This document shows positions 2-64,000 of a stretch of DNA of 64,000 nucleotides, piece by piece; the first letter of the stretch is position 1, and every line of letters starts with the position of its first letter. A program made the translations under genes and the position numbers. Source of the stretch: Spartobacteria bacterium (GTDB lineage Bacteria > Verrucomicrobiota > Verrucomicrobiia > Chthoniobacterales > UBA10450); the NCBI GenBank assembly GCA_040002925.1, contig JBDUDM010000001.1, positions 1,794-65,793 on the forward strand, given 5' to 3'. A model generated the notes under the pieces. It did not search any database, was not told the origin of the DNA, and was given only the letters and a program-made list of their open reading frames with translations.

Positions 2-898
2 GACGGCCACTATTACGTTTACCGGTCCTTCTTCGCCATCCCGAATCTTTCGAACTCCAAAGGCGAACCGACCAACGCGATTTTCGGATTTACCAAAACG
101 CTACGGCTGATGATGAAACATCTGCAGCCGCATTTCGGCGCCGTGTTCTGGGACGAGGGCCTTCCGCACAAGCGGATCGAGCTCCAACCCGCCTACAAGG
201 AAACGCGCAAGGAAATGCCGCTGCCGATGGTGCCGCAGCTCGATTTCATTCAAAAACTCACGCCGCTGCTCGGTTTCAAAAATATTTCCCTGCCGAATAC
301 CGAGGCGGACGACCTGATGGGTTGCTACGCCATGCAAGCGTGCAAACGCGGCGGCACTGAAGTGATCCTCGCCACTAATGACAAGGATTTGTATCAATTG
401 GTCGGGCCGTGCGTGAAAGTTTACAGCACGGCGAAAGCGGATCTGGCCACGCCGAAAGATGGCTTTGCGCTTCTGGGCGAAGAGCAAGTGAAAGCGAAAT
501 GGGATGTGGCGCCCGGATTAATTGGCGATGTGCTCGCCATCGCGGGCGATTCCGTCGACAACATTCCCGGCGCGGGGATTGGCCGAAAAGCCGCGGCCAA
601 GTTGCTCAACGAATTCGGAAATCTCGATCAGCTTCTCGCTAAGATCGACATGGTGAAAAGCGTGAAGACGCAGGAAAAGCTGCGGAACGGCCGCGAACAA
701 ATTTTACAAAACCGAGAAATGGTCGCGCTGGATTGCGAGACCGCATTGCCGATCCCGATCGACGACCTCCGGATCAAGCCCGACTATTCGGCCTTGATTT
801 CCACGCTGGAAAAGTGCGAGTTCAAATCGCTTATGCAGGAGATTCGGGACGAGGCAGCCAGGTTATCCACAGCCAGCCAGACCGAGCTAAGTCTCTAG
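2..898 (+). CDS. Stand-alone 5'-3' exonuclease (Pol I N-terminal / FEN-like); 5' end lies off the window
   Basis: The frame is open from base 2 (DGHYYVYRSFFAIPNLSNSKGEPTNAIFGF...). Motifs TNDKDLYQL and GDSVDNIPGAGIGRKAAAKLL (H3TH) are present. A stop at 896-898 means no polymerase domain follows. Confidence 0.85.
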   Translation, partial: DGHYYVYRSFFAIPNLSNSKGEPTNAIFGFTKTLRLMMKHLQPHFGAVFWDEGLPHKRIELQPAYKETRKEMPLPMVPQLDFIQKLTPLLGFKNISLPNTEADDLMGCYAMQACKRGGTEVILATNDKDLYQLVGPCVKVYSTAKADLATPKDGFALLGEEQVKAKWDVAPGLIGDVLAIAGDSVDNIPGAGIGRKAAAKLLNEFGNLDQLLAKIDMVKSVKTQEKLRNGREQILQNREMVALDCETALPIPIDDLRIKPDYSALISTLEKCEFKSLMQEIRDEAARLSTASQTELSL

Positions 899-1084
899 GC
901 AAGATCGACATCGAGATTTATCGAAAATAAATCGAACGCCGCCCCCCGCCCGCTGTCGAATGATACAGGTTAAGGCGATTCGGGTAGTGGCACGTTCTTC
1001 GTATTTGTTGTTTCTCCTTACGTGCGCTGCCCGAATCTTTTTTTTGTCATTGGCGCCCAACTCATGGTTTCATAGGCGCGGCCC

Positions 1085-2431
1085 ATGGAATCCGATGACA
1101 AACTCTTAGGCTTTCGCGGTTTCCTGATCGATGCGCCGGAATTCGGCGCGCTCCGGTCCCGCCCCCACGGCGCGATCATTGTCCAAAACGGGCGCATCAT
1201 CGAAGTCGGCAATTACGACGACCTCCGTCGCTTGCAACGATCCCAGCAAGTCACCTGGATCGACCGCACCGGCGGCGCGATTTTTCCCGGCCTGATCGAT
1301 TGTCATACCCATCTCCCGCAATATTCGGTCGTCGCGCGCGGGGAGAGCGAATTGTTGCCCTGGCTCCGCCAGCATATTTTTCCGGTCGAACGCGAATTCA
1401 CCGGCCCGAAAGCGCGAGAAGAAGCGCCGCGATTTTTCCACGAGCTCGCCCGCCACGGCACCACCACGGCGATGGTTTATGCGGCCATTTACGAAGACAG
1501 TTGCGAAGTCGGTTTCGAAGCCGCCAGCGCCAGCGGCCTTCGCGTTATTCTCGGCAAAATGATGATGGACATCGGCTCCTACGGCGCCTTGCAGCCGAAA
1601 AAAGTCGTCTCCGTTTCGTTGATCGAGAGCGAACGGCTTTGCCGCAAATGGCATGGCGCGGATGATGGCCGCCTCGAATATGCATTCAGTCCGCGGTTTG
1701 CTGTTTCCTGTTCGGAAAAATTAATGCGCGGCGCGGCCGAAATGGCGGCGCGCTTCGGCGCTTATCTCCAAACGCATCTCGCCGAGAACCGTGAAGAAAT
1801 CGAAAAAGTGCATCACCTTTTCATGGGCGCAGTCGATTACACGCATGTCTACGAGAAGTGCGGCTTGCTCACATCGCGGACGGTGCTCGGGCATTGCATT
1901 CACTTGAGCTCGCGCGAGATCGCCGCCATCGCGACCGCCCAGGCGACGGTCGCCCATTGTCCGACCTCGAATCTTTTTCTCGGGAGCGGCTTGATCAAAC
2001 TCGATCAGCTATTAAAAGCCGGCATCGCCGTCGGTCTCGGTTCCGATGTAGCCGCCGGTCCTGAATTAAACATGTGGCAGGTCATGCGCGGCGCTATCGA
2101 TGTGCAACAAGCCCGCGCTGCTTACGAAGCGAATCTGCGCCCGTTGCGGCCGCGCGAAGCTTTTTATCTCGCCACCCAGGGCGGCGCGAAAGCTCTCGGC
2201 AAAGGCGCCACCATCGGCACGCTCGATCCCGGCAAAGAAGCGGACTTTATTGTTGTCGATCTTGCGGCGCTGCCGCCGTATCCGCCGAAAGATCGACAAT
2301 CACTCCAGAATCTTTCGCCCGAAGATGTCATCGCGCTCTGCATCTACCGCGGCGGCGCGCATTCGAATCTCGAAAGCTACGTTCGCGGCCGGTGCGTTTA
2401 TCAATCGCCGAGTTTTGCGGCAGTCGCATGA
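1085..2431 (+). CDS. Amidohydrolase-superfamily deaminase, guanine-deaminase-like
   Basis: 448 aa. Metal-binding motifs PGLIDCHTHLPQ and THLAENREEIEKV plus a late GSDV motif are typical of guanine deaminase / chlorohydrolase family enzymes. Confidence 0.6.
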   Translation: MESDDKLLGFRGFLIDAPEFGALRSRPHGAIIVQNGRIIEVGNYDDLRRLQRSQQVTWIDRTGGAIFPGLIDCHTHLPQYSVVARGESELLPWLRQHIFPVEREFTGPKAREEAPRFFHELARHGTTTAMVYAAIYEDSCEVGFEAASASGLRVILGKMMMDIGSYGALQPKKVVSVSLIESERLCRKWHGADDGRLEYAFSPRFAVSCSEKLMRGAAEMAARFGAYLQTHLAENREEIEKVHHLFMGAVDYTHVYEKCGLLTSRTVLGHCIHLSSREIAAIATAQATVAHCPTSNLFLGSGLIKLDQLLKAGIAVGLGSDVAAGPELNMWQVMRGAIDVQQARAAYEANLRPLRPREAFYLATQGGAKALGKGATIGTLDPGKEADFIVVDLAALPPYPPKDRQSLQNLSPEDVIALCIYRGGAHSNLESYVRGRCVYQSPSFAAVA

Positions 2432-3273
2432 AGGAACTCGATCCGATCGACATCGCGTTGCGCGAAGACATCGGCACGGGCGACATTACCACGGAAACTT
2501 TTGTGCCCGCGGAATTGCAGGCGTCAGCGCGCATTATTGCGCGCGAAAAAGCGATCATCGCCGGAACGCAAACCGCCGCGTCCGTTTTCCAACGCGTCGA
2601 TCCGTCGGTGCAGGTAACGATTGTGCGCGCCGACGGCGCCGAAGCCGGCCCGGGAGATGTGATTGTCGATCTTCGCGGACCGGCGCGTTCCATTTTGACA
2701 GCCGAGCGCGTGGCCTTGAATTTCCTCCAACGACTTTCCGGCATCGCCACCCTAACGAAACAATTTGTCGACGCCGCGGCCAATGAGCGGGTGCAAATTC
2801 TCGACACGCGCAAAACCACTCCGGGATTGCGCGCGCTCGAAAAAGCGGCCGTCGTCGCCGGGGGCGGAGGCAATCATCGCTCCGGGCTCTACGACATGGT
2901 TCTGCTGAAGGACAATCACCTTGCCTGTCATCCTGATTTCAATGCGCTCGCGGAAAGCGTGCGGAAATTGCGCGCGGAACGGCCGGATGTTCGGATCGAA
3001 ATCGAGGCGGATGATTTGCGCCAGGTCCGCGCCATTCTCAAAAAGGTAGATGTCGATCTTGTCCTGCTCGACAACATGCGCCCCGCGCAATTGCGCGAAG
3101 CGGTCGCGCTCGGCAAAAACACGAAAGTGAAATTTGAAGCAAGCGGCGGCGTGAATTTAAAAAGCGTGCGCATTATCGCCGCGACCGGCGTCGATTACAT
3201 TTCCATCGGCGCGCTCACTCACTCCGCGGGCGCGATCGATCTCTCCCTCGAAATGACCAATGTCGGAGCTTAG
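2428..3273 (+). CDS. nadC: Nicotinate-nucleotide pyrophosphorylase (quinolinate phosphoribosyltransferase)
   Basis: MKELDPIDIALREDIGTGDITTE..., ERVALNFLQRLSGIAT, TRKTTPGLR, LLDNM. The ATG at 2428 overlaps the upstream stop (ATGA). The ORF-track start at 2074 is an over-extension. Confidence 0.9.
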   Translation: MKELDPIDIALREDIGTGDITTETFVPAELQASARIIAREKAIIAGTQTAASVFQRVDPSVQVTIVRADGAEAGPGDVIVDLRGPARSILTAERVALNFLQRLSGIATLTKQFVDAAANERVQILDTRKTTPGLRALEKAAVVAGGGGNHRSGLYDMVLLKDNHLACHPDFNALAESVRKLRAERPDVRIEIEADDLRQVRAILKKVDVDLVLLDNMRPAQLREAVALGKNTKVKFEASGGVNLKSVRIIAATGVDYISIGALTHSAGAIDLSLEMTNVGA

Positions 3274-3847
3274 CGCCGAGAAGCTGCGCGCCGATCTCGG
3301 AGAAGTGACAATCGGTCGCGAGATCGTCGTCCTGGACGAAACCACTTCGACTAACGACGAGATTTTCAAAATAGCGACGCCGGATACGCGCGAAGGCATC
3401 GTCGTCATTGCCGAACATCAAACCGCCGGCCGCGGCCAGCGCGGAAAATCCTGGGAATCTGCGGCGCGCAAAGGACTTTGGTTCTCGATCCTCCTTCGTC
3501 CGAAGATCGACATGAAGAATGCGGCGCGGCTGACCGAGTGGGCCGCAAACATTGTCGCAACGACAATCGGAGAGGCCGAGGTGAAACCGCCTAACGACGT
3601 TTACATCAGCGGACGAAAAGTCGCCGGTGTGCTGGTGGAAATGCGCGCGCAGCCGAACGGTCCACACCTCGGTATTCTCGGCATCGGCGTGAACGTGAAT
3701 CAAACCGCGGAAGATTTCTCGGACGCGGTGAAGGAACGCGCGGCGTCGCTCGCGATGTTGCGCGGCCGTCCGCAAGATCGACATCTACTCGCGGTCGCCT
3801 TGCTCCGAAATCTCGATCGGACCTACGCCGAGCTTTTCCATTTGTAG
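3260..3847 (+). CDS. birA: Biotin--[acetyl-CoA-carboxylase] ligase, catalytic core only (no HTH)
   Basis: 195 aa with the EHQTAGRGQRGKSWES biotin-protein-ligase signature and KWPNDV-like PNDVYISGRKVAGVL. Overlaps the nadC end by 14 nt. Its TAG stop lies inside the terminal TGTAGG of the downstream repeat element. Confidence 0.75.
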   Translation: MSELSAEKLRADLGEVTIGREIVVLDETTSTNDEIFKIATPDTREGIVVIAEHQTAGRGQRGKSWESAARKGLWFSILLRPKIDMKNAARLTEWAANIVATTIGEAEVKPPNDVYISGRKVAGVLVEMRAQPNGPHLGILGIGVNVNQTAEDFSDAVKERAASLAMLRGRPQDRHLLAVALLRNLDRTYAELFHL

Positions 3848-4955: not shown

Positions 4956-6052
4956 GCGGGTTTATTTTCCTGCAACCATTCCCGATATATCTGAGGCGCA
5001 ATCTCGGATGGTTTGATCTCGCTGCGCCCGCCCCAGAAAACATTCGTGTAGGAAACCGGCATGCCGACCGAATGAAGATGTCGATCTATCGCCGCTTTGT
5101 GTTCGAGCAGGAGTGATCTGTCGGTACCATGCGCGACCGCCATGATGTTCACGATTTTAAACTCCGGCCCCGCTTCGCGCCAATAACAATGCGTCAGAAT
5201 GTGATGCCGTCCGACTTCGCCGCCCGCTTCGACTTCGCGGCCGGCCGGCACCGCCCAGTGAAAGAGCGCATTGAAGCGCGTCACACGCACTCCGCCGCTC
5301 GAGGGTTTCACGTGTTCGAGGAAAGTCGAAAAACGTCCGACGATTTTGCGCGCACTTAAGTCTTCCGCGACGCCGTAAAAATCCTCCAGCGATACGCCCG
5401 CTTCGGCCGCGCGTTTCGCCCATGGATTCGGCGCGATCTCTTCCGGCGCGAATTCGCGTTTGAGCGTGAGCAATACTTTCCATTGCTCCTCGCTAAGATC
5501 GACAACGTGCACCGGGATCATCTTCGCCGGCTCGTCCGCTTTGCTTCCAGGCGGAATCGTTTTGCGGCGCACGTGCCCGACGCCAAGCGTGAAAATTCCT
5601 TTCGCGGGCATGACACGAAAACGTTCCGCGCCGACTTTCTGCGCGAGCAATTCGCAATGTTCCTCCATCGAAAAACCGCGCGGAACTTTTAGCGTTGTCC
5701 ACAATTTGTAATCCGAACCCGCCGACGCCGTCTCAGTCGAGCGCAAGACGACGTGGCCGGAAAATGGATCGCGTTGAAACATCCAATCGAACGCACTGTC
5801 GATCTTGTTCTCCGGAACTTTCCAGGCGATGAGCGCGCCGCTGGCCAGATTAGTCGCGAGTAAGGTTTGCCGGACGCGGCGGATCGTTCCCGCGCGCAGC
5901 ATGGCCGCGATGCGCGCCATGACAAGATCGACATCTACATCTGAGCGCGCCGCGATTTCCGCGAAAGGCTCACGCACGAAGCCTTCAATCTTGTCCTCGG
6001 AGACGGCGAGGATCTTGGCGTTAACGGAATCGTTGTGCTCTACCGGCAACAT
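4952..6052 (-). CDS. Two-module Lrp/AsnC-fold protein, siroheme-decarboxylase (AhbAB/NirDL)-like
   Basis: 366 aa with two repeats of the pattern G-IRR...(K/W)VP....HxY.R (GTIRRVRQT...WKVPENKID; KIVGRFSTF...WAVPAGRE...LTHCYWR). Its stop overlaps the trpD start (4952-4955). Confidence 0.4.
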   Translation of the reverse strand: MLPVEHNDSVNAKILAVSEDKIEGFVREPFAEIAARSDVDVDLVMARIAAMLRAGTIRRVRQTLLATNLASGALIAWKVPENKIDSAFDWMFQRDPFSGHVVLRSTETASAGSDYKLWTTLKVPRGFSMEEHCELLAQKVGAERFRVMPAKGIFTLGVGHVRRKTIPPGSKADEPAKMIPVHVVDLSEEQWKVLLTLKREFAPEEIAPNPWAKRAAEAGVSLEDFYGVAEDLSARKIVGRFSTFLEHVKPSSGGVRVTRFNALFHWAVPAGREVEAGGEVGRHHILTHCYWREAGPEFKIVNIMAVAHGTDRSLLLEHKAAIDRHLHSVGMPVSYTNVFWGGRSEIKPSEIAPQIYREWLQENKPA

Positions 6053-6082: not shown

Positions 6083-6760
6083 GTGAATGATATTTTGCGC
6101 GTGATCAAAGCGATCTTCTTCGATGCCGCCGGCACGCTCATCTATTTAACCAAAAGCGTCGGCTATCACTACGCGCTGGTCGGCGCGAAACTCGGGCTGA
6201 GCCTGGACGAGCGGAAATTGAACGACGCCTTCTTCGCGCAGTGGAAAAAAATGCCGACGCGCGAAGCAATCGACGGACCGCGCGAGAACGATGACAAAGA
6301 TTGGTGGCTGCAACTTGTCGATCTTGTCCTGCGTGAAGCTGCGCCTTCGCTGAACGAACTTGATCGCGATAATTTCTTCGAGATCGCGTACGAACATTTC
6401 GCGGAAGCGGGCGTGTGGGAGCTTTATCCCGAGGTGATCGACGTTCTCGAAAAATTACAGCCACGGTTTCAACTCGCGGTCGTTTCAAATTTTGATGGGC
6501 GGCTACGCATGATTCTGGAGCAACTCGGCGTCTTGAAATATTTCTCGCACGTATTCGTGTCGAGCGAGATCGGCGCGGACAAGCCGGATGCGGAAGTGTT
6601 TCGCCGCGCGCTCAAGTTTGCCGAGCGCGACGCAAGCGACGTGCTGCACGCTGGCGATGATCCCGAGCGCGATTGGAAAGCGGCGGCCGTCGCGGGATTG
6701 TCGATCTTCGAGTTGCAGCGACCGAAAAATTCGCTGCGTGATTTGTTGTCGATCTTGTGA
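6083..6760 (+). CDS. HAD-superfamily hydrolase, subfamily IA (REG-2-like)
   Basis: Motif I is FFDAAGTLI (second Asp replaced by Ala). Also VVSNFDGRL and a late GDDPERD motif. An alternative GTG start at 6101 is more typical for the family. Confidence 0.8.
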   Translation: MNDILRVIKAIFFDAAGTLIYLTKSVGYHYALVGAKLGLSLDERKLNDAFFAQWKKMPTREAIDGPRENDDKDWWLQLVDLVLREAAPSLNELDRDNFFEIAYEHFAEAGVWELYPEVIDVLEKLQPRFQLAVVSNFDGRLRMILEQLGVLKYFSHVFVSSEIGADKPDAEVFRRALKFAERDASDVLHAGDDPERDWKAAAVAGLSIFELQRPKNSLRDLLSIL

Positions 6761-7199: not shown

Positions 7200-8456
7200 A
7201 TGAATCGCGGTTGCACGCTTATCGTCTTGTTCGCATTCACCGCGTGTTTGCAAGCGGCCGATGTCGATCTTGCGGCACGCGCGACGAATGAAGTCGGGGT
7301 CGATCTTTACCGGCAACTCGCGACGGGCGATGAAAATCTTTGTTTGTCGCCGTATTCGATCGAGGCCGCGCTCGCGATGACGTTCGCCGGCGCGGAAGGC
7401 GATACGCGCAGCGAGATGGCGCGGGTGTTGCATTTCCCGAGCGACGGCGAGGCGATCCATTCCTCGTTCGATTCGCTGCAGCGTTCGCTGAAGGAAATGG
7501 CGAAGAAGACAGTGAAAATTGCCGATCAATCAAAACGAAGTGGCGGTCCGAGCGAGCCGATTCGGTTTTCGATCGCGAACCGATTGTTTCCGCAAACGGG
7601 TTACGCTTTCCGCGATCTTTTCCGGCAACTGGTCGAAAAGTTTTACGGCGCGCCGTTTGAGCCGCTCGATTATCACAAAAATCCCGAGAGCGCGCGGGAG
7701 CACATTAATAAATGGGTCGCGGAGCAAACGAACGATCGTATTCGCGATCTGATTCCGCCCGACGGCGTGACCGCGGCGACGCGACTGGTTCTGGCCAACG
7801 CGATTTATTTGAAGGCGCCGTGGCTATCGGAATTCAATGACGCTTTTACAAAACCGAAACCGTTTCACATTCGCGGTGGCGCGCCAGTCGATGTCGCGAC
7901 GATGAACACGCGCGCGCAACTCGGCTATGCGAAACGCGAAGGATTCACCGCGGTCGCGCTTCGCTACACCGGCGCCGAGTTGCAATTTGTCGTGCTCGTT
8001 CCCGATAACGTCAGCGGCTTGCGCGCGTTGGAATCTAAATTGAGCGCGGATGTGCTCGCGCAATGCGCGAAGCTCGAGCCGCACGATGTCGATCTTGCAT
8101 TGCCGAAGTTCAAGCTCGAGCCGCCGACGCTGGCATTGAGCGATAAACTGCGCTCGCGCGGAATGAAAACGGCGTTCGATCAGCCGCCGGGTAGTGCGAA
8201 CTTCGATCGGATGGCGCCGCGCAAGCCAGATGATTATCTCGCCATCTCCGAGGTCTTTCACAAGACATTCATCGCGGTCGACGAAAAAGGAACGGAAGCC
8301 GCCGCGGCGACGGCGGTAGCGATGAAGGCGACCTCTGCGCGCGTGGAAAAACAAAACCCGATCGACGTAAAAGTCGATCGCCCATTTCTCTACGCGATCC
8401 AACACGTGCCCAGCGGCGCGTGTTTGTTTATCGGCCGCGTCACCGATCCGCGCTGA
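7200..8456 (+). CDS. Serpin-family protease inhibitor with signal peptide
   Basis: MNRGCTLIVLFAFTACLQA signal; SPYSIEAALAMTFAGAEGDT; hinge EKGTEAAAATAV; VDRPFLYAIQH. The ORF-track start at 7029 runs through the tRNA-derived repeat and is an over-extension. Confidence 0.9.
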   Translation: MNRGCTLIVLFAFTACLQAADVDLAARATNEVGVDLYRQLATGDENLCLSPYSIEAALAMTFAGAEGDTRSEMARVLHFPSDGEAIHSSFDSLQRSLKEMAKKTVKIADQSKRSGGPSEPIRFSIANRLFPQTGYAFRDLFRQLVEKFYGAPFEPLDYHKNPESAREHINKWVAEQTNDRIRDLIPPDGVTAATRLVLANAIYLKAPWLSEFNDAFTKPKPFHIRGGAPVDVATMNTRAQLGYAKREGFTAVALRYTGAELQFVVLVPDNVSGLRALESKLSADVLAQCAKLEPHDVDLALPKFKLEPPTLALSDKLRSRGMKTAFDQPPGSANFDRMAPRKPDDYLAISEVFHKTFIAVDEKGTEAAAATAVAMKATSARVEKQNPIDVKVDRPFLYAIQHVPSGACLFIGRVTDPR

Positions 8457-8545
8457 TCCCGGGCAAGATCGACAAGTAACAATCTTGCTTTCGCTCCACT
8501 CGCATCAGAGGCTCCGGTTCTCATGAGAAAATTCCCGCGCGAGCT

Positions 8546-9286: not shown

Positions 9287-9433
9287 CGGGCGCTTTTAAG
9301 CCGGGCAGTAAACGCACATCCGCGACGAACTTGATTGTCGATCTTGCGCGTGGGAATGCCCCATCGTCCAGATACGGGAAATCATCTTAGTTCTTTTGCT
9401 CGCCGGGCCGAATTGTTAATCTCGAGCAAGCAC

Positions 9434-12975: not shown

Positions 12976-13047
12976 GTCGATCTTGTCCGCCCGTCCGGCT
13001 CGGACTTGTCGATCTTACGATCAGGGAAGATAATTCGCCCGGAAATT

Positions 13048-16902: not shown

Positions 16903-17439
16903 ATGAGCGATCCGAAACATGTGCCGAAAATTTTGCAGCCGCGGCAGAGCGTTCGTTATCTCAAGCTCATCGCGCTTTTCAAAATCGGCAAAGGCTTGCT
17001 CTTGTCGATCTTCGCCATGTCGATCTTGTTCCTAAACTCGCGCGATAACTGGATGGACAAAATCTCGGACTGGCTCGACGCCGAGATCCTGCTGGGGCAT
17101 AGCCGCATCGTTATCTTTGCGCTTAACAAACTCCAGGACGTGATCGCGGGCGGGCAATTGCGCGCGACGGCGTTTCTGATTTTAATCTACTGCGCCGTGC
17201 TTTTCACCGAAGGCATCGGCGTTTATTTGCAAAAGCGCTGGGCCGAGTTTCTCATGATCATCGCAACCAGCGCGTTGATTCCGCTGGAAGTGCGGCACCT
17301 CTGGCTTCGTCCCAGTCCCGGCGCGCTCTGCATCCTGCTCGCGAATTGTTTCATCGTCTGGTTTTTGTATCGCATTCTGAAGCGCGACAAACGCGAGCTG
17401 CCGCAGAAACAAGCGCCCGTGCTGGTCGAGACTCGTTAG
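16903..17439 (+). CDS. DUF2127-like membrane protein
   Basis: 178 aa with 4 predicted TM segments. RYLKLIALFKIGKGLLL near the N-terminus is typical of DUF2127. Confidence 0.55.
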   Translation: MSDPKHVPKILQPRQSVRYLKLIALFKIGKGLLLSIFAMSILFLNSRDNWMDKISDWLDAEILLGHSRIVIFALNKLQDVIAGGQLRATAFLILIYCAVLFTEGIGVYLQKRWAEFLMIIATSALIPLEVRHLWLRPSPGALCILLANCFIVWFLYRILKRDKRELPQKQAPVLVETR

Positions 17440-42646: not shown

Positions 42647-42723
42647 GCCCCGATGGAATCAAATTGCGGGCGCCGTGACAATGGAGATGTCGATCTAACG
42701 AAGGTCAGCGCGATGGACGGACT

Positions 42724-45712: not shown

Positions 45713-45751
45713 GGTGGGAAAACGGAAACGCTCGCTAAGATCGACAATCGA

Positions 45752-53431: not shown

Positions 53432-53457
53432 GCGATTGTCGATCTTGCGACGGACCG

Positions 53458-54339
53458 TCAGTTTTGCACGGTCAATCCGAGAGCAGTGACCACGCGCTCG
53501 AGATCGTCGTTCCCGTAATACTCGATCTCGATCCGGCCGCGTTTCGCGCCGTGGTGAATCGCCACCCTCGTACCGAGATGCTGTTGCAATCGGTTCTGCA
53601 AATCCTCGATCGACGCCGGGTTATCAGTAGATGTCGATCTTGCCTTTCGGCGTGGTCGATTCGACCCGAGCTGGCGCGCGACCAATCTCTCGGTCTGCCG
53701 CACGGTCGCCTTCCGGCGCAACACCGTTTCGGCGACGAGCAGTTGTTCTTCGGGCGCTTTTAGCCCAAGCAAAACTTTAGCGTGACCGACCGAAAGTAAT
53801 TCCTGATTCAACCACGTTTGCAGCTGCGGATGAAGATCGAGCAAGCGCATCGCATTCGCGACGGCGGCGCGGCTGCGGCCGACTTTCGTCGCGATATCTT
53901 CCTGGCGCATGCCGAATTCGTTAGCCAGTCGCGCGTAACCTTGCGCTTCTTCGATCGGATTCAGGTCCGCGCGTTGGAGATTCTCGATCAGCGAAAGCTC
54001 GAGCACTTCGAGATCGCCGGCGCTGCGAATGATCACCGGCACCTCGCTCAATCCCACTTCTTTCGCTGCCCGCCAACGGCGTTCCCCGGCGATGAGCTCG
54101 TGCCCGCCGTTAACGCGACGGACGATGAGCGGCTGAATGATTCCGTGTTGGCGAATCGAATCGATCAATTCCTGCAACGCTTCGCGTGCGAATTCTTTTC
54201 GCGGCTGGAGCGGACTGGGAACGATGGCATCCAGGCTAAGACGATGAATTTTCTCGCCTGAATCCGGCGCCGCCAAAGGAGTGGCAGGCCGGGTGCCGAT
54301 CAATGCGCCGAGGCCTTTGCCGAGACCGGTTTTCGCCAT
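53458..54339 (-). CDS. parB: ParB/Spo0J chromosome partitioning protein
   Basis: MAKTGLGKGLGALI, IIQPLIVRR, ELIAGERRWRAA, LIENLQRADLNPIEEA. There is no parA next to it. Confidence 0.9.
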   Translation of the reverse strand: MAKTGLGKGLGALIGTRPATPLAAPDSGEKIHRLSLDAIVPSPLQPRKEFAREALQELIDSIRQHGIIQPLIVRRVNGGHELIAGERRWRAAKEVGLSEVPVIIRSAGDLEVLELSLIENLQRADLNPIEEAQGYARLANEFGMRQEDIATKVGRSRAAVANAMRLLDLHPQLQTWLNQELLSVGHAKVLLGLKAPEEQLLVAETVLRRKATVRQTERLVARQLGSNRPRRKARSTSTDNPASIEDLQNRLQQHLGTRVAIHHGAKRGRIEIEYYGNDDLERVVTALGLTVQN

Positions 54340-54424: not shown

Positions 54425-55261
54425 ATGTCAGCCACGCCGGACGTATTCACTTTGGGTCATTCACCCGACCCAGATGACGCGTTCATGTTTTATGCGATGG
54501 CGGAAAATAAAATCGACCTGCGCGGTTATCGCTTTGAACACCGGCTCGAAGATATTCAAACGTTGAACGAACGCGCGCTGCGCGGCGAATTGCATATCTC
54601 CGCCATTTCGATTCATGCTTACGCGTTCGTGTCGGATAAATACGCGCTGCTGCCGTGCGGCGCGAGCATGGGCGACGGCTATGGACCGATGGTCATTTCG
54701 CGAAATGAAGATGTCGATCTTAGCAAATGCCTGATCGCGATTCCCGGACGCATGACGAGCGCATTTCTCGCGTTGCAACTTTATCTCGGCGAATTCCGAC
54801 ACATCGTCGTGCCGTTCGACCAAATCTTCGCGGCAGTAGAAAGTGGCCGCGCCGAAGCCGGCCTGATTATCCACGAGGGCCAGCTAACCTACGCGAAATC
54901 CGGTTTTCGGAAGATTATCGATCTTGGTGAATGGTGGAAAAGCAAGACCGGGTTGCCGCTACCTCTCGGCGGCAACGTTGTGCGCAAAGATATTTCATCG
55001 CCCATCCGTTCGGACATTGCGCAGATCATGAGCGAAAGCATCGATTACGCGCTAACGCATCGCACGGACGCGGTCGCTCACTCAATGCCATATGCGCGCG
55101 ACATGAATGCAGATCTCGCCGGCAAATTCATCGGGATGTATGTGAACGATTTCACGCGCGATTACGGCGACACTGGGCGCGCAGCGATTACGCGATTCCT
55201 AAACGACGCGCGCGCGGGCGGGTACATCGACACCCCGCCGCAGCTGGAATTCGTCGAATAG
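54425..55261 (+). CDS. MqnA/MqnD-family menaquinone (futalosine pathway) biosynthesis protein, MqnD-like
   Basis: 278 aa; FTLGHSPDPDDAFMFYAM...EDIQTLNERALRGELHISAISIHAY resembles the periplasmic-binding-fold MqnD pattern. Confidence 0.55.
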   Translation: MSATPDVFTLGHSPDPDDAFMFYAMAENKIDLRGYRFEHRLEDIQTLNERALRGELHISAISIHAYAFVSDKYALLPCGASMGDGYGPMVISRNEDVDLSKCLIAIPGRMTSAFLALQLYLGEFRHIVVPFDQIFAAVESGRAEAGLIIHEGQLTYAKSGFRKIIDLGEWWKSKTGLPLPLGGNVVRKDISSPIRSDIAQIMSESIDYALTHRTDAVAHSMPYARDMNADLAGKFIGMYVNDFTRDYGDTGRAAITRFLNDARAGGYIDTPPQLEFVE

Positions 55262-55536: not shown

Positions 55537-56724
55537 ATGCGTGTGCCACTGCTCGACCTAACTGAACAATACCGGCAACTGGCCGCTCCCATTCGGGACA
55601 AGATCGACAAGGTCCTGTCGAGCCATCGTTTTATTCTCGGACCGCACGTCGAAAGTTTCGAAAAGGCGATGTGCGATTTCACCGGCGCGCCTCACGCGAT
55701 CGGTGTTTCGTCCGGAACAGACGCTCTGCTCGCGGCGTTGATGGCGATGGAGATAGGCCCCGGTGACGCGGTCATCACGACCCCTTTCTCGTTTTTTGCC
55801 ACCGCTGGATGCATCGCGCGCGTCGGAGCCACACCCATCTTCGTCGACATCGATCCGACGTCTTACAACATTTCCACGCGCGCCCTCGAGCAGTTCCTCA
55901 ATGGCGAATGCGAACGTGCTGATGATCGATTGAAGGTCCGCAAAACCGATGAGCGCGTCCGCGCGATCATTCCAGTCCATCTTTACGGCTTGTGCTGCGA
56001 TATGAATGCGATCCATCGCATCTCGGAACAATATCAGCTCGAAGTAATCGAAGATGCCGCGCAAGCGATCGGTGCCGCGTATCCGTTTCATTCAGGAACG
56101 AAGCAGGCGGGGACGTTGGGCGAAGTCGGCTGCTTCAGCTTTTACCCATCGAAAAACCTCGGCGCCGCTGGCGACGCCGGCCTGGTTGTCTGTCGCGACG
56201 AAGAATTTGCTCACAAGCTGCGCAGTTATCGACAGCACGGAATGGAACCGCGTTATTTTCATCATGCCATCGGCGGAAATTTTCGGCTCGATGAAATCCA
56301 AGCTGCGATTCTCGAGGTTAAGCTGCCGCATCTGAACGATTGGTCGGCGCGCCGACGCGAAGCGGCCGATTATTACGGCGCAGAGTTTACCAGAAGTGGA
56401 TTGACCACGACGATCACGCTGCCGGCAGAGCCGTATCGCAAGTCGGGCCTAACAAGTCATCACATTTACCATCAATACGTCATTCGCACGTCCAGACGAG
56501 ATGCTCTGCGGGAGCACCTGACTAAACGCGAGATCGGCACCGAGATTTATTATCCGCTCGGTTTGCACGAGCAGAAATGCTTCGCTTATCTCGGCTACAA
56601 ACAGGGCGATTTCCCCGAGACTGAACGAGCAGCTCAGGAGATCCTGGCGTTGCCGATTTATCCGGAAATTTCTCGCGCAGCGCAAAGCTACGTGGTCGAC
56701 ACCATCGCGGAATTCTTCCGCTAA
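55537..56724 (+). CDS. DegT/DnrJ/EryC1/StrS-family sugar aminotransferase
   Basis: 395 aa; VPLLDL..QY, ILGPHVESFEKA, GVSSGTDAL, SFYPSKNLGA (PLP Lys). Confidence 0.9.
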   Translation: MRVPLLDLTEQYRQLAAPIRDKIDKVLSSHRFILGPHVESFEKAMCDFTGAPHAIGVSSGTDALLAALMAMEIGPGDAVITTPFSFFATAGCIARVGATPIFVDIDPTSYNISTRALEQFLNGECERADDRLKVRKTDERVRAIIPVHLYGLCCDMNAIHRISEQYQLEVIEDAAQAIGAAYPFHSGTKQAGTLGEVGCFSFYPSKNLGAAGDAGLVVCRDEEFAHKLRSYRQHGMEPRYFHHAIGGNFRLDEIQAAILEVKLPHLNDWSARRREAADYYGAEFTRSGLTTTITLPAEPYRKSGLTSHHIYHQYVIRTSRRDALREHLTKREIGTEIYYPLGLHEQKCFAYLGYKQGDFPETERAAQEILALPIYPEISRAAQSYVVDTIAEFFR

Positions 56725-56802
56725 GATCGACAATCACTGGACGGCGGGCGGCAAAATAGTTGCAGCCGATTCCGCGCGAGCCTATATCAACGCGCACGCA
56801 CC

Positions 56803-58080: not shown

Positions 58081-59304
58081 ATGTCGACATTTACTGATCA
58101 AAACGGAAAAACAACCTCTTCCCGCGTGGCCGTGGTCGCTGCCGGCCTCATTTCTCCTCTCGGGTCGGGTTTAAATGATAACCGCGAGGCGTTGGCCGAG
58201 GCGAAAGATTGTGTCACCGAAGTCGAGCGCTTCCGGGTCGATCACTGTCGCTGTAAAACGGCCGGTCAGGTTCCCGAAAAATATCTCCCTGCCGTAAATG
58301 GCAGAAGTCGCGACCGAATTCATCGCGCATCGCGGATGATGATCGGCGCGTTGGACCAAGCACTCGCGCAAGATCGACAATTCAAACCGGAAGTAGCCGT
58401 GATCGGAACCACCAGCGGCGGAATGTCCTTTGGCGAAGATTACTACCGCGCCCTCCATCGACACGGTGACTTGCGACCATCCCCCGCCTGGATCGCGAAC
58501 TATCCGCCACAAAAACCCGTCATCGAGGCGCTGCAGAAATTTCAATTAGATATCGCTTCGCAGGTCATCGCGAATGCGTGCGCATCGGGAACAAATGCGA
58601 TCGGCCATGCTTTCGAATGCATTCGGTCTGGTCGTTACGAGCGCGTGCTCACGGGTGGCTACGATGCGATTTCAGAACTGGTGTTTGTTGGTTTCGATTC
58701 GTTACAAGCCTCGACCCCGGAAAAATGTCGTCCGTTTGATCGACAACGCACGGGAATGGTTCTGGGAGAAGGCGCCGCCATCTTGGCGCTGGAAAATCTC
58801 GAAAGAGCGCGCGCACGTGGCGCGAACGTCCTGGCAGAGATCACGGGTTACGGGATTTCCACGGATAACCATCACCTCACTCAACCTAATCCTTCGGGTG
58901 TCGGACCGCGCGCGGCGATGTCTCAGGCATTGCGTAGCGCAAACATCGAACCGGCGGCGGTCGATTACATTAATGCGCATGGAACGGCGACGATCTTCAA
59001 CGACGCGGCCGAAGGAAAAGCGATCGCCGAATTGTTCGGCCGCAAAGTTCCAGTCAGTTCGACCAAGTCGATGATGGGACACTCGTTAGGGGCGGCCGGT
59101 GCGATTGAAGCGGTTTTCTGCATCCTCGCCCTGCAACAGCAGCTTCTGCCGCCGAATATCCATCACCGCAGCTCAGATGAAGATGTCGATCTTAACATCG
59201 TCGCCAACGCCGCGCGTTCGGCTAAGATCGACATCGCGCTATCGAACTCATTTGGATTCGGGGGAACCAATGCTTCGATCGTGATCGAGCGATATCGCGA
59301 ATGA
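58081..59304 (+). CDS. fabF: Beta-ketoacyl-ACP synthase II-like (active KS)
   Basis: 407 aa; active-site NACASGTNAIG, HGTAT and GHSLGAAG all present. Confidence 0.85.
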   Translation: MSTFTDQNGKTTSSRVAVVAAGLISPLGSGLNDNREALAEAKDCVTEVERFRVDHCRCKTAGQVPEKYLPAVNGRSRDRIHRASRMMIGALDQALAQDRQFKPEVAVIGTTSGGMSFGEDYYRALHRHGDLRPSPAWIANYPPQKPVIEALQKFQLDIASQVIANACASGTNAIGHAFECIRSGRYERVLTGGYDAISELVFVGFDSLQASTPEKCRPFDRQRTGMVLGEGAAILALENLERARARGANVLAEITGYGISTDNHHLTQPNPSGVGPRAAMSQALRSANIEPAAVDYINAHGTATIFNDAAEGKAIAELFGRKVPVSSTKSMMGHSLGAAGAIEAVFCILALQQQLLPPNIHHRSSDEDVDLNIVANAARSAKIDIALSNSFGFGGTNASIVIERYRE

Positions 59305-60407
59305 GCGTCTGCATCGCAGGCCTTGGGTGGGCCACGCCACTCGGTAGCGGAGTTCCTGAAGTCTGGACGCGTTTGCTCGCAGGCGAGGAAGCAGCGGTCG
59401 CACAAATTTCCGACATCGTCAGCGATGTGAGTTATCCGGCTTTTCGTGTTCCAGAAAGCGCGTTGAGCAATCTACCGCGTCATCCGCGGCTGCGTCGCGC
59501 CAGCGCGATATCTCGTTTCGCCGCCGCGGCCGGATTAGCGGCGCTCGAGCAGGCAAGATCGACAATCGGCAAGATCGACATGCAACGAGTCGCGCTCATC
59601 TTCGCGATCTCGAATGGCGGCGTGATTTACACGAAACGTTTTTATCACGACATCGTGGCGACCGGTGCGCAATCGGCCAGCCCGTTGCTTTTTCCCGAAA
59701 CGGTTTTCAATGCGCCCGCGAGTCATCTCGCCGCGATCGTCGGAAGTGAAGGAGCGAGCTACACGCTGGTGGGCGATGGCGCTGTCGGCATTCTCGCCGT
59801 AAAAATGGCGGAGGATTTACTGGCTTCGGATGCGCTGGATTATTGCCTGGTCGTCGGCGCGGAGGAAGCGGACTGGCTTTTGTGCGATGCCTATCATCGC
59901 TGGCGAATGGCGCGACCAACGCCGCCGATCGAGCCGTTTCATTCGTCTGCTAAAGGAATGATCCTGAGCGAAGGCGCCGGCGCAATTCTCATCGGACGTA
60001 GCGGCCAAGTGAAGATCGAGCAAACACATGCGGGCGGAAATTATGCCGGACGCCGCCAGGCGCGCGAGTTGGTCGGTCGGGTGGTGAAGGAACTCGCCAC
60101 GCCGGATCTGCAACTCGCAGTGGCGAGCGCGAACGGGACGTTCGTCGATTCACTCGAAGCGAGCGCGTTCTCGCAATTCGTCCCCGACGCTACGATTTAC
60201 ACGGTGAAGCCGGCGCTGGGCGAAAGCGTGGGTGCGAGCGCGGTCTGGCAAATCATTGTCGCGGCGGAGGCGTTGCGGACTCAACAATTGCCACCTTTGC
60301 TTCACGTGGGTGCGGAGGTGAAACGCGACGCTGCTAAATTGCAGAGCGCGCTGGTTTCGAGCTGCGGATTGAACCAGCAAGTGGCCGGAATGCGCTTGTC
60401 GATCTAA
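59301..60407 (+). CDS. KS-like partner lacking the catalytic triad (chain-length-factor-like)
   Basis: 368 aa with a thiolase fold. The Cys position reads LVGDGAVG, the His positions read SANGT and GESVGAS. The ATG overlaps the upstream stop (ATGA). Confidence 0.7.
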   Translation: MSVCIAGLGWATPLGSGVPEVWTRLLAGEEAAVAQISDIVSDVSYPAFRVPESALSNLPRHPRLRRASAISRFAAAAGLAALEQARSTIGKIDMQRVALIFAISNGGVIYTKRFYHDIVATGAQSASPLLFPETVFNAPASHLAAIVGSEGASYTLVGDGAVGILAVKMAEDLLASDALDYCLVVGAEEADWLLCDAYHRWRMARPTPPIEPFHSSAKGMILSEGAGAILIGRSGQVKIEQTHAGGNYAGRRQARELVGRVVKELATPDLQLAVASANGTFVDSLEASAFSQFVPDATIYTVKPALGESVGASAVWQIIVAAEALRTQQLPPLLHVGAEVKRDAAKLQSALVSSCGLNQQVAGMRLSI

Positions 60408-60473
60408 GGGATTGTCGATCTTGGCCTTTTGTCTTTGCAACGAGGGACGGGTGCGGTACGTTCGGCGTCCGCC

Positions 60474-62720: not shown

Positions 62721-62766
62721 TGGCCAGCGGCTTGCTTCTCCGCTAAGCCGCTGCAACTGCTAAACT

Positions 62767-64000
62767 ATGGATCTCTCCATCATCGGCTCGGGTTATGTCG
62801 GCCTCGTCACCGGCGCGTGCTTCGCGGACGTGGGCCACAACGTTATTTGCGTCGATAACGATCCGCGCAAAGTCGAATCGCTCCAGGCCGGCAAAGTGCC
62901 GATCTATGAGCCCGGGCTTGAAGAAGTCATTCATCGAAATGTTTCCGCGCAAAGGCTGCGCTTCACCGGAAGCATTAAGGAAGGCGTGGATAATTCGCAG
63001 GTCATCTTCATCGCCGTGCCCACGCCGCAGCACCCGAATGGAGATGTCGATCTTAGCTACATCGAGAAAGTCGCGCGCGAGATCGCCGGTGTGCTGACCG
63101 ATTACCGCGTCATCGTCGATAAAAGCACCGTGCCCGTAAAAACGGGTGAGAAAGTGGCCGAGTCGATCAAGCGCTACAATCGCCACGGAGCAAAATTCGA
63201 CGTCGTCAGCAATCCAGAGTTTCTCCGCGAAGGTTGCGCCGTCGGCGACCTGATGCATCCGGACCGCATCGTTATCGGCGCACAAAGCGAACACGCAATC
63301 GACTTGATGAAAAAAGTTTACGAGCCATTCATGGCGCCGATTCTCGTGACCGATATCAACAGCGCCGAACTGATTAAACACGCCGCTAACTCGTTCCTCG
63401 CCCTAAAGATTTCTTACATCAACGCGGTCTCAGCCATCTGTGCCGCCAGCGGCGCCGACGTGGAGAAAGTGGCCGACGGCATCGGGATGGATCGACGGAT
63501 CGGGCGGACGTTTTTGAATGCGGGAATCGGTTACGGTGGATCTTGTTTTCCGAAAGATATCGCCGCTTTTATTACCATCAGCGAGCAGCTCGGCGTCCCT
63601 TTTCAGTTATTGAAAGAAGTGCAGCGAATCAACGCGACCCAGAAGGAGCGTTTTTTGAAAACCATTCGCGAAGCGCTCTGGGTATTGCGCGAGAAAAAAA
63701 TCGCGGTCTGGGGACTCACCTTTAAGCCGGATACGGACGACATCCGTTCCTCGGTCGCGATCGATCTGGTCGCCGACATGCTCGGCGAAGGCGCGCACGT
63801 TTCTGTTTACGATCCGAAAGGAATGGAGAAAGCGCGGGAGCTGAAGTCGCTTTCCGGTGCGCAGTTTGCCTCGTCGCCGATGGAAGCGATCGAAGGCGCG
63901 GAAGCGCTCATCATCGCCACGGAATGGAGCGAGTTCGCCAATGTCGATCTTGCGCTGGTCAAAGAGCGAATGACGACGCCGATTATTTTCGACGGCCGAA
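62767..64000 (+). CDS. ugd: UDP-glucose 6-dehydrogenase; 3' end lies off the window
   Basis: Own translation: MDLSIIGSGYVGLVTGACFADVGHNVICVD..., SNPEFLREG, GGSCFPKD, GLTFKPDTDDIR. It is absent from the ORF track because there is no in-window stop. The listed minus-strand ORF 62743-63381 is antisense noise. Confidence 0.9.
   Translation, partial: MDLSIIGSGYVGLVTGACFADVGHNVICVDNDPRKVESLQAGKVPIYEPGLEEVIHRNVSAQRLRFTGSIKEGVDNSQVIFIAVPTPQHPNGDVDLSYIEKVAREIAGVLTDYRVIVDKSTVPVKTGEKVAESIKRYNRHGAKFDVVSNPEFLREGCAVGDLMHPDRIVIGAQSEHAIDLMKKVYEPFMAPILVTDINSAELIKHAANSFLALKISYINAVSAICAASGADVEKVADGIGMDRRIGRTFLNAGIGYGGSCFPKDIAAFITISEQLGVPFQLLKEVQRINATQKERFLKTIREALWVLREKKIAVWGLTFKPDTDDIRSSVAIDLVADMLGEGAHVSVYDPKGMEKARELKSLSGAQFASSPMEAIEGAEALIIATEWSEFANVDLALVKERMTTPIIFDGR

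Follow-up and report, generated by a model that had tools for sequence, protein, structure and literature searches.

A hyper-abundant asymmetric 10-mer with the footprint of a putative DNA uptake sequence in a clade of uncultured soil Chthoniobacterales

The DNA analysed here, referred to as the window, is a stretch of 64,000 nucleotides (positions 1,794 to 65,793 of contig JBDUDM010000001.1, assembly GCA_040002925.1) and is part of the housekeeping chromosome of an uncultured bacterium of the Chthoniobacterales (Verrucomicrobiota). The 10-mer TGTCGATCTT is the commonest of its length in the window and exceeds chance expectation approximately 400-fold. Judged by its genomic pattern, the word appears to carry a footprint of the type known from the DNA uptake sequence (DUS) of Neisseriaceae, the uptake signal sequence (USS) of Pasteurellaceae and the highly iterated palindrome HIP1 of cyanobacteria, here in a new phylum, with an unrelated sequence and with a distinct geometry of paired copies; its function is putative. 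We give a probability of roughly 50% to the reading that TGTCGATCTT serves as a self-recognition word of the DUS/USS type in transformation or DNA uptake, possibly in a methylation-dependent manner as in HIP1.

The word was found 82 times (46 copies on the plus and 36 on the minus strand) between positions 641 and 63951, corresponding to 1.28 copies per kb, while 100 dinucleotide-preserving shuffles of the 64-kb window gave 0.20 ± 0.40 copies with a maximum of one. Counts decrease only from 98 for the 8-mer TGTCGATC via 87 for the 9-mer to 82 for the 10-mer, and the core is therefore sharply bounded. In an alignment of all 82 copies with 20-nt flanks, position -1 is A in 40, T in 39 and C in three copies and never G (79/82 A or T), T occurs at position -2 in 1/82, and position +1 is G in 50/82 (61%) and A in 20/82. 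Beyond ±3 nt the flanks are close to background and contain almost no information, so that TGTCGATCTT is a word rather than a piece of a longer repeat. The extended form is V-W-TGTCGATCTT-G/A, i.e. any nucleotide except T, then A or T, then the word followed by G more often than A, and 524 pooled copies from related DNA show a matching flank pattern. Perfect copies outnumber those with a single mismatch in the window (82:18) as well as in the pooled relatives (525:221). Five of the 18 one-mismatch copies are TGTCGATCTA, and the central CGAT is the part of the word tolerating change least among the pooled copies. With the word masked, no other 8- to 10-mer stands out in the window, the variant TGTCGATCTA excepted. 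TGTCGATCTT is asymmetric (non-palindromic), embeds GATC and TCGA and, as read from the sequence, is free of stop codons in all six frames. A preliminary description of this DNA had reported the same number of copies, strand partition and span, a density of about 1.3 per kb, an A or T before and in about 60% a G after the core, and TGTCGATCTA at 5079, 39970, 42688, 52099 and 60397; the recount was identical in numbers and coordinates.

Based on the calls of a self-trained open reading frame (ORF) caller (58 genes, 91.7% of the window coding), 71 copies (87%) are located within coding sequences (CDS), eight are intergenic and three extend across a CDS end. Relative to the gene, 42 of the copies in CDS are sense and 29 antisense, which is nearly random. 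Five of the six frames are used in the window, encoding VDL (27 copies), SI[L/F] (15), KID (13), RST (10) and DR[Q/H] (6). Among the 525 pooled copies of the relatives, VDL is encoded by 144, KID by 109, SI[L/F] by 88, DR[Q/H] by 41, RST by 31 and CRS by three. The earlier statement that both strands and all frames are used thus holds for the strands, for five frames and for intergenic DNA, but not for the CRS frame, which is unused in the window.

Codon usage is overridden at these sites. VDL tripeptides are written GTCGATCTT in 27 of 30 cases, where codon usage predicts one, and 10 of the 14 RST tripeptides are written AGATCGACA (0.02 expected; AGA accounts for 3.5% of the Arg codons). The codons of the word were used in 13/16 KID and 10/10 DR[Q/H] as well. 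Because the word overrides codon usage and occurs in five frames, on both strands and in intergenic DNA, the constraint acts on the DNA and not on a peptide, which is what had been proposed initially; a peptide motif is ruled out as an explanation by the same observations. Amino acid identity to the orthologues of word-less relatives is 43% at the word codons compared to 72% elsewhere (p = 3e-31); the word occupies permissive protein positions or has altered the proteins, or both. In addition, stop codons are formed with the help of the word. TAA is made by T+AAGATCGACA on one strand and by TGTCGATCTA+A on the other, and TAA stops supplied by the word or by TGTCGATCTA are located at 37422-37424, 56722-56724, 39978-39980 and 60405-60407.

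Neighbourhoods of gnd were taken from relatives, and the word density was determined over approximately 21 kb of syntenic DNA. The nearest named gnd homologues are those of soil metagenome-assembled genomes (MAGs) of Verrucomicrobiota/Chthoniobacterales. The genomes compared were:

L083, NCBI MAG GCA_038229295.1, gnd identity 90%, 1.37 copies per kb
L084, from JGI, gnd identity 88%, 0.70 copies per kb
L002, gnd identity 86%, 0.42 copies per kb
L001, gnd identity 86%, 0.09 copies per kb
L017, L005, L007, L009 and all more distant genomes, 0 copies per kb

The five word-bearing genomes form one clade (neighbour-joining, 1858 ungapped protein columns), in which the density is graded from 1.37 via 1.28 (window), 0.70 and 0.42 to 0.09 per kb, with outgroups at zero. 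A metagenome scan for two direct copies of the word within 30 nt matched at least 120 stretches. Among the matches listed, most of those with 54-58% G+C were word-dense soil contigs, and 36 loci of at least 3 kb contained 0.6-2.1 copies per kb, some of them originating from contigs 0.4-1.6 Mb long. A restriction to the region of the window, raised beforehand as a possibility, is not seen, given the equal density in the syntenic DNA of L083 and the many soil contigs. Locally repeated 10-mers of their own were observed in L009, L013, L053 and L067, which come from relatives as well as unrelated genomes, e.g. GTCATCCCGA/GAGGGACCTC eight times in L009 and AGGTTAGCGC 25 times in L053.

Orthologous sites were compared by mapping the window codons onto the relatives via tblastn alignments. 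At a nucleotide identity of 76%, 17 of the 18 copies alignable to L083 are represented by the identical word at the identical position, while other 10-mers are kept in 9.9%. Every copy in an aligned CDS falls in an ungapped orthologue alignment; the copies therefore arose by substitution and not by insertion. Their presence is largely nested, with six sites common to the window and L083, four extending to L084, three to L002 and one to all five genomes. Losses of the word consist of one or two point changes, and remnants were found in the window at 17609, 24076 and 28618. As the corresponding sites are perfect in relatives, the variants of the window are at least partly decayed words. The six sites found in the window and L083 only fit the tree poorly, in which L083 is paired with L084; loss in L084, weak resolution of the tree or recombination may be responsible. 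At 36458-36469, the window has the word on the plus strand (encoding MSIL), whereas the word of L083 and L002 is on the minus strand (LKID), with the same GATC at its centre. The two orientations are seven substitutions apart within well-aligned flanks, and the flanking residues of the window are nearer to those of the outgroup L017 than to L083. Either an independent gain or recombination over a short patch could explain this orientation swap.

The exact matches to TGTCGATCTT, with their context in our CDS calls, the tripeptide encoded and the relatives having the word at the orthologous site, as well as variants and decayed copies, are the following:

641..650, minus strand, word in CDS 2-898(+), KID
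901..910, minus strand, word, intergenic
2254..2263, plus strand, word in CDS 1085-2431(+), VDL
2289..2298, minus strand, word in CDS 1085-2431(+), DR[QH]
2664..2673, plus strand, word in CDS 2392-3273(+), VDL
3051..3060, plus strand, word in CDS 2392-3273(+), VDL
3503..3512, minus strand, word in CDS 3260-3847(+), KID
3774..3783, minus strand, word in CDS 3260-3847(+), DR[QH]
5495..5504, minus strand, word in CDS 4952-6052(-), VDL
5797..5806, plus strand, word in CDS 4952-6052(-), KID
5924..5933, minus strand, word in CDS 4952-6052(-), VDL
6316..6325, plus strand, word in CDS 6083-6760(+), VDL
6699..6708, plus strand, word in CDS 6083-6760(+), SI[LF]
6747..6756, plus strand, word in CDS 6083-6760(+), SI[LF]
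7262..7271, plus strand, word in CDS 7116-8456(+), VDL
8087..8096, plus strand, word in CDS 7116-8456(+), VDL
8465..8474, minus strand, word, intergenic
9336..9345, plus strand, word, intergenic
10614..10623, minus strand, word in CDS 10568-11692(-), SI[LF]
10968..10977, minus strand, word in CDS 10568-11692(-), SI[LF]
12975..12984, plus strand, word overlapping the start-codon end of CDS 12016-12975(-)
13007..13016, plus strand, word, intergenic
13565..13574, plus strand, word in CDS 13048-14391(+), SI[LF]
13842..13851, plus strand, word in CDS 13048-14391(+), VDL
14615..14624, minus strand, word in CDS 14426-15568(+), KID
14875..14884, plus strand, word in CDS 14426-15568(+), VDL
15285..15294, plus strand, word in CDS 14426-15568(+), SI[LF]
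16374..16383, minus strand, word in CDS 15572-16453(-), SI[LF]
16414..16423, plus strand, word in CDS 15572-16453(-), KID
17003..17012, plus strand, word in CDS 16903-17439(+), SI[LF]; first of direct pair, 15 bp
17018..17027, plus strand, word in CDS 16903-17439(+), SI[LF]; second of direct pair, 15 bp
17667..17676, plus strand, word in CDS 17436-18023(-), RST; also in L083, L084, L002
17901..17910, minus strand, word in CDS 17436-18023(-), VDL; also in L083, L084
18998..19007, plus strand, word, intergenic
19402..19411, plus strand, word in CDS 19032-20846(+), SI[LF]; also in L083
20768..20777, minus strand, word in CDS 19032-20846(+), RST; also in L083, L084
22976..22985, plus strand, word in CDS 22359-24497(+), VDL; also in L083
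24356..24365, plus strand, word in CDS 22359-24497(+), VDL; also in L083, L084
25173..25182, plus strand, word in CDS 25050-25739(-), RST; also in L083
25675..25684, plus strand, word in the overlap of ORFs 25050-25739(-) and 25625-26119(-); also in L083
25997..26006, minus strand, word in MoaE CDS 25625-26119(-), VDL
28112..28121, plus strand, word in dnaE2 CDS 27677-30817(-), RST; also in L083
28275..28284, plus strand, word in dnaE2 CDS 27677-30817(-), DR[QH]; also in L083, L084, L002
28385..28394, plus strand, word in dnaE2 CDS 27677-30817(-), RST; also in L083
30198..30207, minus strand, word in dnaE2 CDS 27677-30817(-), SI[LF]; also in L083
30224..30233, minus strand, word in dnaE2 CDS 27677-30817(-), VDL; also in L083, L084, L002
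31323..31332, minus strand, word in CDS 30774-31733(-), VDL; also in L083, L084, L002, L001 (oldest site seen)
31681..31690, minus strand, word in CDS 30774-31733(-), SI[LF]; also in L083, L084
34891..34900, plus strand, word in DinG/YoaA CDS 33718-35703(-), RST; also in L083, L002
35543..35552, plus strand, word in DinG/YoaA CDS 33718-35703(-), DR[QH]; also in L083
36458..36467, plus strand, word in CDS 35779-36918(+), SI[LF]; opposite orientation in L083, L002
37423..37432, minus strand, word at the TAA stop of CDS 36915-37424(+); first of direct pair, 15 bp
37438..37447, minus strand, word in CDS 37432-38517(+), KID; second of direct pair, 15 bp
37806..37815, plus strand, word in CDS 37432-38517(+), VDL
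39774..39783, minus strand, word in CDS 39516-39980(+), KID
40720..40729, plus strand, word in CDS 40700-41350(+), VDL
41086..41095, plus strand, word in CDS 40700-41350(+), VDL
41320..41329, minus strand, word in CDS 40700-41350(+), RST
43319..43328, plus strand, word in CDS 42855-45308(-), KID
44499..44508, minus strand, word in CDS 42855-45308(-), VDL
45147..45156, plus strand, word in CDS 42855-45308(-), RST
45737..45746, minus strand, word, intergenic
49435..49444, minus strand, word in CDS 49414-50295(-), VDL
49985..49994, minus strand, word in CDS 49414-50295(-), SI[LF]
50228..50237, plus strand, word in CDS 49414-50295(-), DR[QH]
50488..50497, minus strand, word in CDS 50299-51432(-), VDL
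51787..51796, minus strand, word in CDS 51576-52541(-), SI[LF]
52612..52621, plus strand, word in CDS 52538-53431(-), KID
53306..53315, minus strand, word in CDS 52538-53431(-), VDL
53437..53446, plus strand, word, intergenic
53632..53641, plus strand, word in parB CDS 53458-54381(-), RST
54712..54721, plus strand, word in CDS 54425-55261(+), VDL
55600..55609, minus strand, word in CDS 55537-56724(+), KID
56723..56732, minus strand, word at the TAA stop of CDS 55537-56724(+)
58370..58379, minus strand, word in CDS 58081-59304(+), DR[QH]
59184..59193, plus strand, word in CDS 58081-59304(+), VDL
59224..59233, minus strand, word in CDS 58081-59304(+), KID
59555..59564, minus strand, word in CDS 59301-60407(+), RST; first of direct pair, 16 bp
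59571..59580, minus strand, word in CDS 59301-60407(+), KID; second of direct pair, 16 bp
60413..60422, plus strand, word, intergenic; 16 bp downstream of the variant at 60397
63045..63054, plus strand, word in CDS 62767-63999(+), VDL
63942..63951, plus strand, word in CDS 62767-63999(+), VDL
5079..5088, plus strand, variant TGTCGATCTA, one mismatch at position 10
39970..39979, plus strand, variant TGTCGATCTA; the A that follows completes the TAA stop of ORF 39516-39980(+)
42688..42697, plus strand, variant TGTCGATCTA
52099..52108, plus strand, variant TGTCGATCTA
60397..60406, plus strand, variant TGTCGATCTA; the A that follows completes the TAA stop of ORF 59301-60407(+)
17609..17618, plus strand, decayed copy TGTCGATTTT, orthologous site perfect in L083, L084
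24076..24085, plus strand, decayed copy TGTCGATCAT, orthologous site perfect in L083, L084
28618..28627, plus strand, decayed copy TGTCGATCAC, orthologous site perfect in L083, L084, L002, L001

A by-product of another process, such as a miniature mobile element or a repetitive extragenic palindromic (REP)-like repeat, a favoured peptide motif or an assembly artefact, might be considered on account of the high copy number, the sole observation in its support. The flanks are not conserved beyond ±2 nt, the copies replace orthologous sequence without insertions or deletions, no hairpin is formed, and most copies are intragenic. The use of five frames and both strands with codon override argues against a peptide origin, and the same word was found at the same sites in independent NCBI, ENA and JGI assemblies. 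The chance that TGTCGATCTT is such a by-product is practically negligible, and a miniature inverted-repeat transposable element, a REP element or any longer repeat is ruled out by the random flanks, the 87% of copies in CDS and the ungapped orthologous alignments.

Word density also varies within genomes. In L084, a 3.4-kb insertion (11587-14981, corresponding to 27618-27677 of the window) contains a TonB-dependent receptor gene and a 91-amino acid ORF; the insertion, located between gnd and dnaE2, was found in L084 and in one other contig. In L084 it is free of words despite a density of 0.7 per kb in the genome (p about 0.09), which is a hint that recently acquired DNA is free of the word. 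The nine words of L002 are all located in the dnaE2-imuB-dinG-lptF half and none in the 12.4-kb exopolysaccharide/gnd half (244-12628), and the density is therefore uneven within this low-density genome.

With regard to orientation, the strand balance in the window (46:36) does not deviate from equality (p = 0.32; runs test z = 0.14). Three other loci of approximately 21 kb, picked via protein and not via the word, gave 16:13, 8:7 and 5:4, and the summed chi-square for the four loci together results in p = 0.79. This is in line with the lack of strand bias stated in the preliminary description, and the strong skew it had named as speaking for another function was absent from the window and from all three additional loci. 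Short, non-palindromic words over-represented in core genes are typical of Chi and of the FtsK-orienting polar sequences (KOPS), and a Chi-like contribution during transformation has been suggested for HIP1. If TGTCGATCTT were a polar recombination or segregation signal of this kind, RecBCD/AddAB or FtsK would recognise it on a single strand relative to replication. This is very improbable in view of the missing orientation bias, by which polarity of the Chi/KOPS type is ruled out at the scale of the loci sampled. Fixed-spacing direct pairs, described below, are not a feature of Chi or KOPS either, and to our knowledge a 400-fold excess and a length of 10-12 nt are far beyond any known Chi or KOPS word. 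Along the window the copies are spaced randomly (coefficient of variation 0.94) with an ordinary largest gap of 3.7 kb, which rules out even spacing.

At short range, the spacing is far from random. Close pairs were collected from the word-rich loci L123-L242 plus the window; the former were selected for having one direct pair in range, a selection that does not bias how the pairs are distributed inside this range. Of 76 direct pairs 11-40 bp apart (start to start), 33 are spaced by 15 bp, 10 by 16 bp and five by 17 bp, whereas none is found at 11-14 or 18-25 bp. The window, which was not selected for pairs, harbors three direct pairs at 15-16 bp (17003-17027, 37423-37447 and 59555-59580) compared to 0.2 expected (p = 0.0015), besides a pair of variant and word at 60397-60422. 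Altogether about 4-7% of the copies are part of tandem pairs. Spacers and flanks of the pairs are unrelated, several frames are used, and 20 of the 48 pairs at 15-17 bp are intergenic. The differing spacers and flanks rule out 15-bp duplications as their origin; a coding repeat is ruled out by the several frames, the intergenic pairs and the absence of the in-frame spacings 12, 18, 21 and 24. No degenerate partner of single copies was found at offsets of 15-17 bp. Inverted pairs within 40 bp were encountered five times among 525 copies; the three inverted pairs of the window are intragenic. At its end, the locus L153 carries an array with a repeat unit of 15 bp (AAGATCGACATGTCC)n. A tandem pair of L226 covers a gene junction, in the order stop codon, AGGAG-containing spacer and ATG start.

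The sharp spacing of 15-17 bp implies head-to-tail recognition and is what a cooperative sequence-specific protein would give. Such a protein might be an abundant chromosome-organising or DNA-tracking one (nucleoid-associated or an SMC/ParB-like loader), in which case TGTCGATCTT would be its binding site and the copies would be kept by selection for chromosome structure. Orientation independence and the existence of tandem arrays with a 15-bp unit as in L153 would suit a structural role. Moreover, orthologous sites are kept far above background, an argument also made for HIP1 (PMC5861425), for which a function in chromosome structure was proposed by Xu, Lawrence and Durand. We nevertheless regard a structural site as unlikely. 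Selection at each of thousands of sites would need to be stronger than the measurable codon and protein costs, and the system would need to have originated in a single young clade, whereas sister lineages possessing the same genes are devoid of an equivalent word. The spacing in the window is random rather than regular, only the small fraction of copies mentioned above forms tandem pairs, single copies have no degenerate partner, and no candidate protein was found.

The embedded GATC and TCGA sites raise the question of methylation. Expectations for sub-words were calculated with a maximal-order Markov model with the word masked. Outside the word, the numbers observed and expected were 482/517 for GATC, 592/561 for TCGA, 85/107 for CGATCG and 83/72 for TCGATC, and other sub-words were likewise at expectation. 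Since the sub-words are at expectation, the excess belongs to the full 10-mer and not to a short methylation target. A general enrichment of methyltransferase targets is ruled out on this basis for GATC, TCGA, TCGATC, GATCGA and CGATCG; the equal enrichment of all words with the GATC target, which the preliminary description had considered as a sign of a HIP1-like explanation, was thus not observed. Biased repair or gene conversion, e.g. by a mismatch endonuclease together with a methyltransferase acting on the GATC/TCGA site, would convert near-matches to the word within the cell and without any uptake. Repair toward the word would account for new copies as well as for their preservation at orthologous sites, central CGAT is least variable, and very-short-patch repair is a precedent for repair that shifts word frequencies. 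This origin is distinctly unlikely. The enzyme would need to accept a site of 10-12 bp whichever of its positions is mismatched, shorter words with putative methylation targets are not enriched, and the window is free of a methyltransferase or Vsr-like gene. Furthermore, the repair biases we know of shift word frequencies by less than about two-fold and not 400-fold. Viral DNA was considered in this context, too, because DNA that replicates in the same cells would be expected to drift likewise. In 2.9 million viral contigs, the pair pattern matched 38 stretches without a dense one among them, and among the first 120 matches listed for viral stretches with the 14-mer form, 108 had one copy, 11 two and one three. 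No word-dense viral contig was thus present among these matches, which contain chance single or double copies only; as an argument against repair within the cell this is weak, since the hosts of the contigs are not known.

The reading as an uptake sequence, suggested by the preliminary description, gained from these results in that codon override, conservation of orthologous sites, nested presence and the use of poorly conserved protein positions strengthen an uptake-type signature, and none of the computational tests run that might have refuted it did so; it is qualified by the missing terminator pairs and by the 15-17 bp rule. The HIP1-like alternative is hardly a rival any more, because HIP1 itself has been proposed as a methylation-dependent transformation signal. 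Under the uptake reading, the word would have accumulated and been maintained genome-wide in one clade of uncultured soil Chthoniobacterales by a process acting on double-stranded DNA, whatever the orientation, frame or gene. This process would most likely be the one known for DUS and USS, in which the machinery of natural transformation has a DNA receptor, at the surface or in the periplasm, that prefers word-bearing fragments. Alleles in which a mutation made a word would enter other cells and recombine there more frequently. Words might in this way have spread to about one per kb, with decayed words being restored. Given the embedded GATC and TCGA, the process may depend on methylation, as proposed for HIP1, and the reader protein may bind head-to-tail as a cooperative dimer on the direct pairs. 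Three elements of this reading are inferred from the genomic pattern, namely a reader protein acting in uptake or transformation, a sequence bias of uptake and natural competence of the lineage. On a tentative basis, with slightly less than even odds, the word may belong to an independent DNA self-recognition system for natural transformation in Verrucomicrobiota, with a receptor unrelated to ComP that would recognise an asymmetric word of 10-12 bp and could bind head-to-tail where two copies are spaced by 15-17 bp.

Several observations qualify the uptake reading. Ten E. coli seeds (DprA, ComEC, ComEA, PilQ/M/N/O/B/C and pilin) matched nothing in a phmmer search, even at E<=5, of the 5016 ORFs in an incomplete and redundant sample of word-rich loci (559 kb), which counts neither for nor against it, and the window itself is devoid of competence, pilus or methyltransferase genes. 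Inverted repeats in terminators are a frequent, if not strictly defining, feature of the DUS/USS family; inverted pairs of TGTCGATCTT are rare, and no word-built terminator was among the predictions in the 1-20 kb stretch scanned. Word-less relatives show no alternative dominant word, and no "dialects" were thus seen in sister lineages. We know of no counterpart of the 15-17 bp direct-pair rule in DUS or USS, and this rule fits any cooperative DNA-binding protein equally well. Finally, the same genomic signature is shown by HIP1, the function of which is still debated.

No genomic footprint of habitual natural transformation restricted to a species is clearer than uptake sequences. If the uptake reading is true, natural competence would be present in a dominant, uncultured soil group, and one of the most abundant uncultured soil lineages would swap DNA mainly among its own members. 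Outside Proteobacteria no such system would precede it, the still-debated cyanobacterial HIP1 aside. As a simple sequence marker, the word could then help to bin soil metagenomes and to follow gene flow in them, and its addition to donor DNA might be a handle for genetic access. The graded densities (1.4 to 0.09 per kb) and nested sites represent a rare natural time series of word invasion, which bears on the debate about molecular drive versus selection, and the 15-17 bp direct-pair rule is a concrete clue to the reader protein.

The genes encoded in the window comprise a 5'-3' exonuclease, nadC, trpD, a serpin, ABC transporters and an exopolysaccharide cluster, furthermore gnd, dnaE2 and imuB-like genes, a DinG/YoaA helicase and lptF/G, as well as lexA, tol/exb, parB, menaquinone and fatty-acid genes and three tRNAs. 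The serpin gene (7116-8456) is a full-length bacterial one (Pfam Serpin, E = 8.5e-98) amid housekeeping genes. Genes for SOS mutagenesis are located in two places. The first (27677-35703) encodes the error-prone polymerase DnaE2 (1046 amino acids), an ImuB-like protein (IMS_C), an unannotated protein of 647 amino acids and the DinG/YoaA helicase, the second (40031-41910) LexA, a RecA-fold ImuA-like protein and a short ImuB-like protein (IMS). Both word sites common to the most distant word-bearing relative, L001, fall in dnaE2 and imuB. The gene for the 647-amino acid protein, without Pfam match, adjoins imuB/dnaE2 and is kept in all relatives. Sizeable ORFs without Pfam match are located at 31733-33676, 60429-62720, 48629-49291 and 18219-18911; one protein of 763 amino acids in the window has a weak LptD-like similarity only and no Pfam match. 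A chromosomal parB (53458-54381) is often found near the replication origin; the window contains neither a dnaA gene nor a clear GC-skew switch.

In full-text searches of the literature, TGTCGATCTT and its 8-mer core were found only in primers and other unrelated sequences, and no paper tying DNA uptake sequences to Verrucomicrobia or Udaeobacter was found. In comparison with known systems, the word shares with Chi and KOPS that it is short, non-palindromic and over-represented in core DNA. The latter are 5-8 nt long, few-fold enriched and strongly strand-skewed, in contrast to the 400-fold excess of TGTCGATCTT without skew. HIP1, a palindromic octamer (GCGATCGC) with known cognate orphan methyltransferases, occurs phylum-wide, is 15-300-fold over-represented at about one copy per gene, and its sites are conserved beyond background without a role at the RNA or peptide level (PMC5861425). 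It was recently tied to methylation-dependent transformation and proposed as an uptake sequence. A CGATC/GATC core, hyper-abundance, conservation of sites between genomes above background and the location in and between ORFs are common to both words, whereas TGTCGATCTT is asymmetric, has 10-12 nt and is confined to one young clade, with CGATCG, as given above, found 85 times versus 107 expected.

Sequences of the uptake type are established only in Neisseriaceae and Pasteurellaceae according to a survey of 2025 (bioRxiv 10.1101/2025.10.24.684340). Their signature consists of an asymmetric word of 10-12 nt with about one copy per kb in either orientation, in genes and intergenic DNA, with conflict at the codon and protein level, origin by substitution, maintenance at orthologous sites and restriction to one clade in which the density is graded; these DNA uptake enhancing sequences (DUES) make up to ~2% of the chromosome, and the density found here is of the same order. 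DUES favour poorly conserved protein positions (same source), with which the identities of 43% versus 72% agree. The USS of Pasteurellaceae (AAGTGCGGT / ACAAGCGGT) differs from TGTCGATCTT by its helically phased AT-rich flanking segments, the flanks of the latter being uninformative beyond ±3 nt, and TGTCGATCTT embeds GATC and TCGA. Both are mostly intragenic, impose tripeptides on proteins and arise by point substitution at poorly conserved sites, and molecular drive is plausible for both. The DUS of Neisseriaceae (GCCGTCTGAA and dialects), with ComP as receptor, is unrelated in sequence to the word described here, which belongs to a different phylum (Verrucomicrobiota), is devoid of inverted-repeat terminator pairs, forms direct pairs at 15-17 bp and showed no dialects in sister lineages. 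Otherwise TGTCGATCTT resembles DUS closely: it is a non-palindromic 10-mer with an extended form of 12 nt, present about once per kb with perfect copies outnumbering one-off copies, in either orientation, in CDS and intergenic DNA, with a frame bias, at permissive protein positions and at positions conserved among related species.

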